NCBI GenBank assembly: GCA_030154045.1 | Contig: JASKKU010000002.1 | Span: 7,663-71,662, forward strand | From: Candidatus Woesearchaeota archaeon | Lineage (GTDB): Archaea > Nanobdellota > Nanobdellia > Woesearchaeales > JASKKU01 | Length of the DNA: 64,000 bases | Direction: 5' to 3' | In this document: positions 54,495 through 56,433 of the stretch, piece after piece | Numbering within the stretch: the stretch's first letter is position 1 | Layout: every line of letters starts with the position of its first letter | Notes under the pieces: model-generated | What the model was told of the DNA's origin: nothing | Seen by the model: the letters and a program-made list of their open reading frames with translations, nothing else | Database searches by the model: none | Position numbers and translations under genes: made by a program

Positions 54495-56138
54495 TTACAT
54501 CATCATTCCTGGGTTGTCTAACCCAGCAGGATTTGATTTCTCTTTCTCTTCCGGCAATTCTACAACCACTGCTTCGGTTGTTAGTATTAGGCTACCTATA
54601 CTTGCTGCGTTCTGCAACGCAACCCTGGTTACTTTAGCAGGGTCAATAACGCCAGCTTTGAATAGATCTTCGTATTCTCCGGTTCTTGCATTAAATCCAA
54701 ACTCTATCTGTGAATGTTTCAAAACTTCGTTAATCACAATTGAACCGTCCATGCCTGCGTTTTCAGCAATTAATCTTATAGGTTGTCTTAAAGCTCTTCT
54801 AATTATATCTGCGCCAATCTTTTCATCAGGATCTTCTAATTCTTCAATTAACTTCTCAAGTTCCTTTGAAGCCCTTAACAAGGTTACACCGCCGCCTGGA
54901 ATTACGCCTTCTTCAATAGCAGCTCTGGTAGCGTGCAATGCATCATCAATCCTATCTTTCTTCTCTTTCATTTCAGTTTCGGTAGCAGCTCCTACTTTAA
55001 TTACAGCTACACCACCTGATAATTTAGCTAATCTCTTTTCTAAGTCCTCTCTGTCAAACTCTGATTCAGTTTTCTCTATCAATTTTTGAATCATCTTGAT
55101 TCTTTCTTCAATCTCTTTCTTGTCTCCTTTTCCACCAATAATGGTTGTCTTATCCTTGTCAACTCTGACTTTTTCTGCTCTACCTAATAAATCAAGAGTA
55201 GCATTCTCCAACTTCATACCTTTCTCTTCACTGATAACCTTTCCGCCAGTTAAGATAGCAATGTCTTCAAGCATCTGTTTTCTCTCTTCACCAAAGCTTG
55301 GAGCTTTAACAGCAACAACCTTTATGGTTCCTCTTAATAAGTTCAAGATAATTGTGGCAAGTGCTTCTCCTTCTAAATCATCAACAATCATTAACAATGG
55401 CTTTCCTTGTTGAGCAACTGCTTCTAATATTCTTACAATATCCTTAATTGCACCTATCTTCTTGTCAGTTATTAAGATATATGGCTCTTCTAAAACAGCC
55501 TCCATATTCTCAGAATCTGTGATCATATATGGTGAGATAAAACCTCTGTCAAACTGCATACCTTCTACAACTTCCAAACTAGTTTCTAAGGCTTTAGCCT
55601 CTTCTACAGTGATTACTCCTTTGTGTCCTACTTTATCCATTGCCTCTGCTATTAATTTGCCTATCTCTTCATCGTTGTTTGCTGAGATTGTTGCTACCTG
55701 TAATATCTTATCTTTTACATCCTTGCTGACTTTCTTGATGTATTCAACAGTCTTCTTAGTAGCTTTCTCAATACCTCTTCTTACACCCATAGGATTAGCA
55801 CCAGCAGTAATATTTTTGATACCTTCTTTAACAATTGCTTGAGCTAGAACCGCAGCAGTCGTAGTACCGTCTCCTGCAACATCTTGAGTTTTTGTTGAAA
55901 CCTCTTTGATTAATTGAGCACCAACATTCTCAGCCTTATCAGCTAATTCAATCTCTTTTGCAATTGTAACACCATCATTTGTGATTACAGGAGAACCAAA
56001 TCCTTTGTCCAAGACAACATACCTTCCTTTTGGACCCAATGTGACTTTAACAGTATCAGCCAATTTATCTAACCCTCTAATTAACGCCTTTCTTGCTTCT
56101 TCATTGAATATGATTTTTTTACCTGCCATGCTTATCAC
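54495..56138 (-). CDS. groEL: group I chaperonin GroEL (Cpn60)
   Basis: The N-terminus is [61 protein letters not shown], followed by [16 protein letters not shown] and GGG-hinge and GVIPGGGV blocks. The C-terminus is GMMM. Confidence 0.85.
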
Positions 56139-56148
56139 CTCGTTTATT

Positions 56149-56433
56149 TTATTCGATTATTGCAAGAACATCCTTAACATCAACAATTACATGCTTTTCG
56201 CCATCAATCTCTATTTCCTTATCACTATAACCGCCATAGATTACGTGATCGCCCTTCTTTACAGGAAACTCCTTGCCTTCATGTTCTTTATCATCATAAT
56301 AACCTACTTCAACTACAATACCTTCCTTTCTATTTTCGTTTGCAGTTTCAGGTAGATATATACCGCCTTTTGTCTTTTCTTCCCTCTTAACTGGCTTTAT
56401 TAGAACTCGTGGTCCAAGAATTTTGATACCCAT
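56149..56433 (-). CDS. groES: co-chaperonin GroES (Cpn10)
   Basis: It reads [42 protein letters not shown], a Cpn10 mobile loop plus core. It lies immediately upstream of groEL on the same strand. Confidence 0.75.

Follow-up and report, generated by a model that had tools for sequence, protein, structure and literature searches.

Castelle et al. (2021, Front Microbiol 12:660052, PMC8204110), in their account of these lineages, describe many Woesearchaeota and Pacearchaeota as having both GroEL/ES and thermosomes; bacterial-type GroEL/ES in Woesearchaeota-type DPANN is thus an already published feature. The experimentally characterised archaeal group I chaperonin is the GroEL/GroES of Methanosarcina mazei (Figueiredo et al. 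2004, J Biol Chem 279:1090, as cited in PMC8204110). Like the locus studied here, it is a bacterial-type GroEL/ES in an archaeon and is attributed to horizontal transfer, and M. mazei also has thermosomes, but it belongs to a different archaeal phylum. Among a cultured set, GroELS was found only in Methanomicrobia (PMC12874294, a 2026 survey). Our finding in the window, by which we mean the whole 64-kb stretch of DNA that was analysed, corrects the common view, repeated in that survey, of archaeal GroELS as essentially a Methanosarcinales trait, and it adds one example to the documented pattern of Woesearchaeota/Pacearchaeota-type DPANN with bacterial GroEL/ES and DnaK.

The systems reported for Woesearchaeota and Pacearchaeota (PMC8204110) and the one in the window share host group, gene pair, gene order, clade and signature residues. 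Some relatives carry a hsp20-htpX-groES-groEL-grpE-dnaK cluster, whereas in the window groESL is on its own, flanked by a Ski2-like helicase and a lineage-specific 119-aa ORF; nothing essential differs. The initial annotation had placed archaeal group I chaperonins mainly in Methanosarcinales-type lineages. This does not hold up, given that 21 of the 25 top GroEL matches that carry names are from Woesearchaeota/Nanoarchaeota, as well as the published report (PMC8204110).

The two genes lie in tandem on the minus strand in the order groES to groEL, with 19 nt between them, and identical Shine-Dalgarno motifs can be read ahead of both:

56149-56433, minus strand: groES, Cpn10 co-chaperonin, 94 aa (ORF call, Pfam, NCBIfam)
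54495-56129, minus strand: groEL, group I chaperonin, 544 aa, C-terminus ...NPGMMM
56438-56444, minus strand: Shine-Dalgarno GAGGTGA of groES
56135-56141, minus strand: Shine-Dalgarno GAGGTGA of groEL, identical to that of groES

The mechanical ORF for groEL spans 54495-56138 (minus strand, 547 aa) and begins at a GTG at 56138. We take the ATG at 56129 as the most likely true start, since GAGGTGA at 56141-56135 stands ahead of it and the predicted product is 100% identical to a 544-aa database protein (P0001). The assignment of the pair is straightforward. In NCBIfam, GroEL matches TIGR02348 with 822.5 bits (cut-off 582.1), over model positions 2-526 of 526, and groES matches NF001539 with 124.9 bits (cut-off 122); the Pfam matches are Cpn60_TCP1 for GroEL and Cpn10 (PF00166) for groES, the latter with 88.3 bits against 21.1. 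Together with the PGMMM tail, these scores bear out the initial annotation in its reading of a group I chaperonin with its Cpn10 partner in the classical order.

For comparison with E. coli GroEL/GroES (PDB 1AON, 4PKN), we anchored the residue alignment on the PDB-verified E. coli sequence, to which the window GroEL is 56% identical over 536 aligned residues. The catalytic residues are intact: T30-P33, D52, GDGTTT at 86-91 with D87, D398, GGG at 414-416 and D495 (E. coli numbering) are all as in E. coli, and the two systems also share the nucleotide-binding residues, a hydrophobic apical surface, the mobile-loop tripeptide and a Met-rich C-terminus. At the apical sites Y199, Y203, F204, L234, L237, L259, V263 and V264, the window protein has F, Y, M, V, L, L, I and L, all hydrophobic; the changes (Y199F, F204M, L234V, V263I and V264L, the last two being I261 and L262 in window numbering) are conservative and typical of the archaeal clade described below. 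Inter-ring contact residues are kept or conservatively changed (R452, E461D, S463, V464I). The window protein also differs from that of E. coli in a K364D/E367K charge swap and in the tail, which is (GGM)4M in E. coli and the short PGMMM here; among relatives, the tails range from GMGGMGMM to none at all (L071). GroES aligns over its full length, GGI(Y/L/F)LP loop included, to solved Cpn10/GroES chains, and its mobile loop with the hydrophobic tripeptide matches the GGI(L/V/F)LP loop of solved Cpn10/Cpn20 chains. We infer from these residues that the locus codes for a functional group I chaperonin system, in which GroEL would be expected to form a folding cage, a double ring driven by ATP, with GroES as the lid that docks on GroEL via the mobile loop.

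The host is archaeal, as had been read from the gene context. An archaeal RNase P RNA lies at 9093-9376 (Rfam, 158.7 bits against a gathering score of 84), the window also codes for Nre, Gins51, aIF5B, RadA, the primase small subunit, ZPR1, NFACT and a Ski2-like/DSHCT helicase, and the named relatives of its SecY are all Woesearchaeota, Nanoarchaeota or GW2011_AR3. Also in agreement with the initial annotation, the window has no thermosome gene: among the scanned ORFs of at least 110 aa, GroEL is the sole Cpn60_TCP1 match, and it reaches only 101-104 bits against thermosome models with cut-offs of 400-671. One could take this to mean that the thermosome was lost and that GroEL/ES is the only chaperonin of the organism. 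We think this very unlikely, because 64 kb is a small fraction of the genome, both systems are found in many Woesearchaeota and Pacearchaeota (Castelle et al., PMC8204110), and they stand side by side in a related archaeon, whose contig (L071) carries thermosome (ORF 3328-4989, 823 bits), groES, groEL, hsp20 and dnaK together. Probably, then, the chaperonin works beside a thermosome coded outside the window; with none in these 64 kb, coexistence here is extrapolated from the relatives. In such a setting, GroEL would help to fold proteins that are bacterial-derived or destabilised, in a genome that is reduced and evolves fast.

The position of the window GroEL among its relatives is clear. NJ trees, computed with a simple distance correction and 200 replicates from taxa chosen by similarity to the query, and with sampling that lacks Methanosarcinales and labelled Pacearchaeota GroELs, put it in one clade with all 23 labelled archaeal GroELs and 82 unlabelled matches (100% bootstrap). 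This clade, 107 sequences in all, holds every labelled Woesearchaeota/Nanoarchaeota GroEL sampled. Inside it, the window subclade has 13 members, labelled Woesearchaeota among them (93% NJ bootstrap), and HDP73390.1, annotated as "GroEL [Candidatus Woesearchaeota archaeon]", falls in this tight subclade. Three residues, all carried by the window GroEL, serve as a signature of the clade: Q82, D364 and K367 (E. coli numbering) occur in 24/24, 23/24 and 24/24 archaeal-clade sequences, counting the window, and in 0/34 bacteria. A peptide-pattern scan for GroEL in the genome collection returned mostly Acidobacteriota/Gemmatimonadota, used solely as bacterial references, and two archaeal loci.

Gene order is also conserved. 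Downstream, the 119-aa ORF, an LTD protein and further genes are kept in two relatives, one with 91% (L082) and one with 74% (L081) GroEL identity. In other Woesearchaeota, groESL lies among archaeal genes for PheRS, DRG GTPase, aCPSF1, proteasome, PCNA and RadA, and long archaeal contigs by the dozen have groESL amid archaeal core genes. Against its own reading, the initial annotation had set a thermosome in the genome together with a placement of groESL within an established archaeal clade without evidence of transfer. The second half of that picture, as regards transfer into this genome, is what the 100% and 93% bootstrap values and the kept synteny describe.

We consider it likely, and hold this with good confidence, that groESL is a bacterial-type operon that is old, vertically inherited and domesticated in Woesearchaeota-type DPANN. 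Most probably, an ancestor of Woesearchaeota-type DPANN would have acquired it from a bacterium long ago, with vertical inheritance ever since. The horizontal transfer put forward initially thus survives as the origin of the clade, for which it is the most economical explanation, but not as a recent event, against which clade, synteny and GC3 all speak.

An ancient transfer in this direction has a competitor, that there was no bacterial transfer and the DPANN GroEL is an ancient archaeal group I lineage, either inherited vertically or passed on in the reverse direction. When the NJ tree is rooted on thermosomes, 52% of replicates nest the archaeal clade in Bacteria and 48% make it the sister group of all bacteria sampled; the clade is about equidistant from the bacterial phyla, slightly more distant (0.61) than the phyla are from one another (0.66-0.71). 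Fast evolution of DPANN alone, however, accounts for a long stem and attraction to the outgroup. GroEL is near-universal in Bacteria and patchy in Archaea, which also argues against an archaeal origin, as does the identity of about 61% between the clade and bacterial GroELs, compared with about 25-28% between GroEL and thermosome. In addition, the operon often travels with grpE-dnaK, also regarded as bacterial in origin (PMC8204110), and only Bacillota share with the clade the character states N51, M204 and L264. On these grounds, an ancient archaeal lineage seems to us very unlikely. For the bacterial donor, the three shared states hint at Bacillota; the distance comparison gives no clade-level signal for a phylum, with 0.61 between the archaeal clade and Bacillota and 0.61 between it and the other phyla.

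That leaves the age of the transfer. The initial annotation pointed to a region visibly less AT-rich than its surroundings, and one could imagine this composition as the scar of a recent transfer of groESL into this genome or its immediate ancestors. Certainly, local GC is 0.35-0.365 in the operon and 0.265-0.33 beside it, and of the 53 window genes only one has a higher total GC than groEL (0.378). The contrast with the immediate flanks is therefore real, but the region is no outlier in the window, where 43-48 kb reaches 0.36-0.41. The GC and codon-usage comparison, once run, did not support composition as a sign of transfer: GC3 of groEL is 0.286 against a window mean of 0.290 +/- 0.031 (z = -0.14), and its synonymous-codon likelihood is also typical of the host (z = +0.59 relative to the window). 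The excess GC sits in codon positions 1-2 (GC1 0.505), as in RadA, SecY and aIF5B, and is thus due to amino-acid content. Across ten archaeal loci, GC3 of groEL follows that of the host (r = 0.97). A few GroELs of Bacillota, Desulfotomaculales and Caldiserica do reach scores on a par with those of many archaeal GroELs (63-68% identity), which would be compatible with a recent arrival. Against it stand not only the host-like GC3 and codon usage but also the fully supported archaeal clade with its private signature residues, the synteny held down to 74% GroEL identity and expression signals that are archaeal, with no CIRCE. We therefore see no recent transfer and regard one as extremely unlikely. 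The chance that mis-assembly or mis-binning attached a piece of bacterial DNA to archaeal DNA here is negligible; the sequence is metagenome-derived, and an archaeal-clade GroEL on a 1.8-kb contig binned as Caldisericales (L048) shows that binning errors do happen around groEL, but the junctions helicase - groES - groEL - 119-aa ORF - LTD gene recur in independent Logan, JGI and NCBI assemblies, codon usage is uniform across the operon junctions, and there are the dozens of long archaeal contigs mentioned above.

In its expression signals, the sequence that flanks the two genes reads as archaeal:

56500-56507, minus strand: TATA-like box TTTAAATA, with purine-rich CAGAAAGA ahead (BRE-like); putative archaeal promoter
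54461-54493, minus strand: T-run region (TTTTT, TTTT, TTTTTT, TTTTT) directly after the groEL stop

The TATA box is invariant in three relatives (L081, L082, L083), despite a different upstream gene in L081, and four further loci (L084, L086, L171, L174) have similar TTTAAATA/TTTATAAAT boxes ahead of groES. We imagine that the TATA/BRE-type box is the promoter of the operon and that the T-runs act as an archaeal-style oligo-T terminator. Bacterial counterparts were not found: there is no bacterial hairpin terminator in 53900-56700, promoter-like matches in a sigma-70 scan of the groESL region are at background level, and the CIRCE element TTAGCACTC-N9-GAGTGCTAA has no match anywhere in the window with up to 3 mismatches. 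No HrcA family match (Pfam, NCBIfam) was seen among the window ORFs scanned, and no RNA thermometer or other known RNA element appeared in an Rfam scan of the groES leader. In place of sigma-32 or CIRCE control, the domesticated operon would be run from a TATA/BRE-type promoter and would end in oligo-T; a CIRCE/HrcA operator is absent.

Two 17-bp sites of the GTTGA-N7-TCAAC type, in tandem with a 20-nt period, occupy the stretch from the TATA box to the ribosome-binding site of groES:

56468-56484, minus strand: candidate operator site 1, GTTTAATTAAAGTTGAC, PWM score 18.0
56448-56464, minus strand: candidate operator site 2, GTTGATTTAAAGTTGAC, PWM score 22.3

Site 1 starts 15 nt past the TATA box and overlaps the predicted (unmapped) transcription start, which would fall about 24-26 nt beyond the centre of that box. 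The two window sites are direct-repeat-like (GTTGAT...GTTGAC) and not perfect palindromes. The same tandem architecture is found in five other loci (L081, L082, L084, L086, L171); among ten lineages with groES alone, two (L172, L173) are without the motif. Across about 235 kb of window and archaeal loci, PWM matches of at least 17 bits all fall in promoter regions of groES or of chaperone clusters, in a first scan against the kind of site from which the PWM itself had been seeded. A lax palindrome search allowing 2 mismatches was not discriminating (18 matches against 13 expected), and the PWM was used instead. These expression signals and the tandem operator-type sites are the one detail of the locus that looks new.

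What might bind such sites is suggested by the relatives. In many DPANN-like metagenomic loci, a gene for a small wHTH regulator is paired with grpE-dnaK, to which it is divergent in 27 of the 41 loci that are 5 kb or longer, and in four loci (L001, L071, L089, L090) it adjoins the chaperone cluster. GTTGA-N7-TCAAC occurs upstream of this regulator in 36 of 73 independent loci, compared with 0.01 expected per 280 nt, and elsewhere there are 15 matches in 446 kb; this test is independent of the PWM seeds and covers the regulator's own upstream region. Since the same palindrome precedes both groES and the regulator paired with grpE-dnaK, a regulon comparable to that of HrcA/CIRCE is suggested. 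The tandem sites in the window may bind a small wHTH repressor coded elsewhere in the genome, like the one that in relatives has a divergent position beside grpE-dnaK, or sometimes lies beside hsp20-htpX-groES-groEL, and groESL would then belong to a chaperone regulon. Searches of the 64-kb window by Pfam/NCBIfam ORF scans, and by tblastn for the wHTH regulator, found neither dnaK nor grpE, nor any homologue of the regulator; that groESL is so regulated here is accordingly an extrapolation from the relatives.

One can tentatively envision, with the balance leaning slightly against it, that grpE-dnaK and groESL in DPANN, sometimes with hsp20 and an HtpX-like protease, are under an undescribed wHTH/coiled-coil repressor of about 135 aa that acts at GTTGA-N7-TCAAC near the TATA box, with the groESL of the window as a remote member. 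In Bacillota and many other bacteria, the HrcA/CIRCE regulon has a single repressor, which acts at an inverted-repeat operator before both the dnaK and groE operons. The logic proposed here would be similar, with a palindrome at the intergenic region of regulator and grpE-dnaK as well as upstream of groES, and with the regulator linked to grpE-dnaK. Unlike that regulon, the window has no CIRCE and, among the ORFs scanned, no HrcA, and GTTGA-N7-TCAAC is placed relative to an archaeal TATA box. If the proposal is true, the system would be a counterpart of HrcA/CIRCE in function, assembled from parts that are unrelated to it.

Within the Archaea, the closest parallels are Phr of Pyrococcus and HSR1 of Archaeoglobus, autoregulatory wHTH repressors that act at or just downstream of the TATA box or start of chaperone genes (PMC9133787). 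The HSR1 site, CTAAC-N5-GTTAG, has a palindromic geometry similar to that of GTTGA-N7-TCAAC, with different half-sites; unlike the targets of Phr and HSR1, those considered here are operons of mesophilic DPANN, dnaK and groE, that derive from bacteria. The proposed repressor, if real, would be the third archaeal heat-shock regulator after these two and the first for DPANN. Should the sharing of operators with dnaK loci be confirmed, it would show an archaeon wiring foreign chaperones into its own stress response and would offer a testable regulator-operator pair in a group without a genetic system.

Two minor observations concern the proteins around this system. For the 119-aa neighbour of groEL, single-sequence structure prediction gave a mean pLDDT of 48. 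The candidate regulator is a 135-aa wHTH protein with a coiled-coil tail. Neither of two known assignments was retained for it: no Phr chain appeared in the PDB profile search, and tests for likeness to Phr or HrcA gave only generic wHTH similarities below threshold. Its similarities to archaeal Lrs14/Sta1/Sso10a-type and ArsR-type proteins are likewise sub-threshold only. With a profile of four homologues, the best match in the PDB was 2d1h, a hypothetical regulator of Sulfolobus (E = 2.5e-6).

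The two chaperonin genes lie in tandem on the reverse strand:

54495-56138, reverse strand: groEL as a mechanical open reading frame (ORF); 54495-56129 when read from the ATG
56149-56433, reverse strand: groES ORF, 94 amino acids (aa)

Judging from the sequence around it, groEL almost certainly begins with the ATG codon at 56129: this codon sits 5 nt past a GAGGTGA Shine-Dalgarno motif, identical to the one ahead of groES, and gives a 544-aa protein of the same length and sequence as a database protein (P0001). GroEL scored 822.5 bits against the curated equivalog TIGR02348 (cut-off 582.1) and GroES 124.9 bits against NF001539 (cut-off 122); their Pfam domains are Cpn60_TCP1 and Cpn10, respectively, and GroEL ends in ...NPGMMM. 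Against thermosome models, GroEL reached 101 to 104 bits, below the cut-offs of 400 to 671, and no further chaperonin-family protein was found among window ORFs of at least 110 aa. The initial annotation was right to describe a group I pair in groES-groEL order with a GMMM tail, no thermosome in the window, and archaeal surroundings, and a bacterial-type groES-groEL operon in an archaeon is confirmed.

The window belongs to an archaeon. An archaeal-type RNase P RNA gene is present (9093-9376, forward strand; 158.7 bits, gathering score 84), and the encoded proteins include Nre, Gins51, aIF5B, SecY, RadA, the primase small subunit, ZPR1, and NFACT, as well as an EMC3/TMCO1-like protein and an MBF1-like HTH protein; the gene immediately upstream of groES encodes a Ski2-like, DSHCT domain-containing helicase. 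Since the named relatives of its SecY all come from "Candidatus Woesearchaeota," "Nanoarchaeota," or archaeon GW2011_AR3, the host, with a GC content of about 32%, is a Woesearchaeota-type DPANN archaeon.

Among the 25 top GroEL matches with names, 21 are from Woesearchaeota/Nanoarchaeota and 4 from Bacillota, Desulfotomaculales, or Caldiserica. A neighbor-joining tree (152 sequences, 200 bootstrap replicates) was built from the top matches, E. coli GroEL, and 32 GroELs from a genome scan (30 bacterial and 2 archaeal MAGs). It placed the window GroEL, all 23 labeled archaeal sequences, and 82 unlabeled matches in one clade with 100% support; the window's own subclade of 13, labeled Woesearchaeota included, had 93% support. 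HDP73390.1, annotated at NCBI as "chaperonin GroEL [Candidatus Woesearchaeota archaeon]," falls in this tight subclade. The clade has private states, Q82 and the charge swap K364D/E367K (E. coli numbering): Q82 and K367 are each present in 24/24 archaeal-clade sequences and D364 in 23/24, vs 0/34 bacteria for each. The swap, at window residues 362 and 365 (REKLQER to REDLEKR), has the look of a compensated i/i+3 salt-bridge inversion and can serve as a convenient marker of the archaeal clade. The sole labeled bacterium in the clade is a contig binned as Caldisericales (JAAYUI010000048.1, 1,823 bp). Its GroEL carries the residues typical of the archaeal clade; the contig probably comes from a DPANN archaeon and was mis-binned into a bacterial MAG.

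A chimeric contig is ruled out, because the order groES, groEL, a 119-aa ORF, and a convergent LTD-domain gene, with further downstream genes, recurs in independent Logan, JGI, and NCBI assemblies (GroEL identities to the window of 100%, 91%, and 74%), and in other Woesearchaeota groESL lies amid archaeal PheRS, DRG GTPase, aCPSF1, proteasome, PCNA, RadA, or TFE genes. In the 74% relative (L081), the upstream neighbor is PPDK instead of the helicase.

Nor is there any sign of recent acquisition. The initial annotation correctly saw the region as less AT-rich; groEL has a high total GC (0.378) by the standards of the window, as do RadA (0.383), SecY (0.378), and aIF5B (0.367). This is no scar of transfer, since the excess lies in codon positions 1 and 2, where it reflects a Gly/Ala/Val/Asp/Glu-rich protein, and the comparison with other window genes that had been proposed as a check found groEL host-like: GC3 is 0.286 vs a window mean of 0.290 ± 0.031 (z = −0.14), and, judged by the codon usage of the other genes, its synonymous codons are slightly more likely than average. 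Across ten archaeal loci with gene GC3 of 0.13 to 0.50, groEL GC3 rises and falls with that of the host (Pearson r = 0.97). Four lines, namely relatives, synteny, composition, and amelioration across lineages, point to groESL as a long-resident gene pair.

The neighbors downstream of groEL are as follows:

54052-54411, reverse strand: 119-aa ORF, directly downstream of groEL
52196-54055, forward strand: 619-aa protein with a lamin-tail domain

The 119-aa ORF occupies the same position in the syntenic relatives L082 (76% identity) and L081 (50%) and is missing from it in more distant Woesearchaeota. It includes a ...NISSGDGNTHMALISALL... segment and had no Pfam or NCBIfam match, and an AlphaFold model made from this one sequence had low confidence (pLDDT 48). 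The 619-aa gene overlaps it convergently by 4 nt and is conserved in both relatives; its product starts with a signal-peptide-like N terminus, ends in a transmembrane anchor, and is very rich in N-x-S/T sequons.

Nearly all Bacteria have GroEL, whereas its occurrence in Archaea is patchy. Given this distribution, and identities of the archaeal clade of about 61% to bacterial GroELs and only about 25 to 28% to thermosomes, the best reading of the sequences is that the clade probably originated by ancient transfer from Bacteria. With thermosome rooting, the clade was nested in Bacteria in 52% of replicates and sister to them in 48%, making the direction a coin-flip. The clade is equally far from Bacillota and from other phyla; the sole hint at a donor is N51, M204, and L264, common to the clade and Bacillota/Desulfotomaculales. 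Transfer from bacteria, as initially suggested, stands as a probable ancient event, not as a recent gain by this lineage.

The phenomenon itself counts as published, since Castelle et al. (2021, PMC8204110) report GroEL/ES together with thermosomes in many Woesearchaeota and Pacearchaeota; the locus adds an unremarkable example to a DPANN GroEL clade that is already documented. The view that archaeal group I chaperonins are known mainly from Methanosarcinales fits older and some current surveys, one of which had no DPANN in its dataset (PMC12874294), but overlooks these cases. On one contig of an uncultured archaeon MAG (CAYNRQ010000020.1, 3328-10820) whose GroEL falls in the same clade, a thermosome gene (823 bits), a homolog of the regulator discussed below, groES, groEL, hsp20, and dnaK lie within 8 kb, and about 700 nt separate the chaperonin genes of groups I and II.

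Neither protein shows signs of decay when compared with E. coli (reference 548/548 identical to PDB 4pkn_G). At 56% overall identity, GroEL keeps all nucleotide-binding and catalytic residues (T30-P33, D52, GDGTTT with D87, D398, GGG414-416, and D495); apical hydrophobic positions are kept or conservatively changed (Y199F, F204M, L234V, V263I, V264L), as are ring-interface residues, and GroES has the usual mobile loop. The closest solved structures are bacterial GroELs.

Upstream of groES, the following were read on the reverse strand:

upstream of the TATA box, reverse strand: purine-rich stretch
56507-56500, reverse strand: putative TATA box, TTTAAATA
56484-56468, reverse strand: candidate site 1, GTTTAATTAAAGTTGAC, 15 nt past the TATA box
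56464-56448, reverse strand: candidate site 2, GTTGATTTAAAGTTGAC, 3 nt past site 1 and followed by GAGGTGA and the ATG

No CIRCE element was found in the window at up to 3 mismatches, and neither HrcA among its ORFs nor a bacterial hairpin terminator in 53900-56700; several T-runs past the groEL stop codon would serve as an archaeal-style terminator. Three relatives (L081 to L083) share the TATA box and the two 17-mers, even with a different upstream gene. A TATA box followed by one or two 17-mers at a 20-nt period also precedes groES in L084, L086, L087, L171, and L174, and is not present there in L172 or L173. In L001, L089, and L090, the best match is intergenic, with a divergent gene for a 135-aa wHTH protein on one side and the start of an hsp20/htpX-groES-groEL-grpE-CxxC-dnaK cluster on the other. 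Matches to the 17-bp palindrome in relatives are as follows:

L090, 8086-8102
L001, 4308-4324
L089, 8633-8649
L084, 9636-9672
L086, 3073-3109
L174, 3468-3539

In L001 (5250-5345), groES starts with TTG, and the piece of about 22 nt that spans this start and its ribosome-binding site (ACGGAGGTAGATTAAATTGAA) has a second copy about 75 nt upstream.

As an independent test, metagenome contigs were scanned with the regulator alignment (regulator loci L091 to L170). Among the 73 loci whose upstream sequence was long enough, 36 had a PWM match of 15 bits or more in the 280 nt ahead of the regulator gene, vs 15 matches in 446 kb elsewhere in these loci (about 0.01 per 280 nt); the consensus is GTTGAyyTTAArTCAAC. 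Of the 41 loci that span at least 5 kb, 27 have the regulator in divergent orientation to grpE-(CxxC)-dnaK, and four of these have groES-groEL in the same cluster. The GTTGA-N7-TCAAC palindrome and the wHTH regulator may form an HrcA/CIRCE-like regulon in DPANN archaea, with the same logic as the bacterial system and unrelated parts. The regulator's similarities to archaeal Lrs14/Sta1/Sso10a-type and ArsR-type wHTH proteins all fell below threshold, and no similarity to Phr was detected; the palindrome geometry resembles the HSR1 site, CTAAC-N5-GTTAG (PMC9133787). The window holds no copy of the regulator, so we infer its link to this genome. The literature searched made no mention of such a regulator in DPANN, and this candidate system is the one part of the finding that might be new.

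Other genes in the window deserve mention:

1160-1639, reverse strand: lipoprotein signal peptidase II (LspA, Peptidase_A8), bacterial-flavored
32640-35048, reverse strand: full-length DNA gyrase subunit A (557 bits), bacterial-flavored, with no adjoining gyrB
38879-42037, forward strand: very large ORF, 1,052 aa
42155-48328, forward strand: very large ORF, 2,057 aa

The last two probably encode giant surface proteins, which are common in DPANN; the 2,057-aa ORF contains the window's top-GC stretch (0.36 to 0.41) and weak MopE-like metal-binding repeats. A 113-aa mechanical ORF (8995-9336, reverse strand) overlaps the RNase P RNA gene and is almost certainly spurious.
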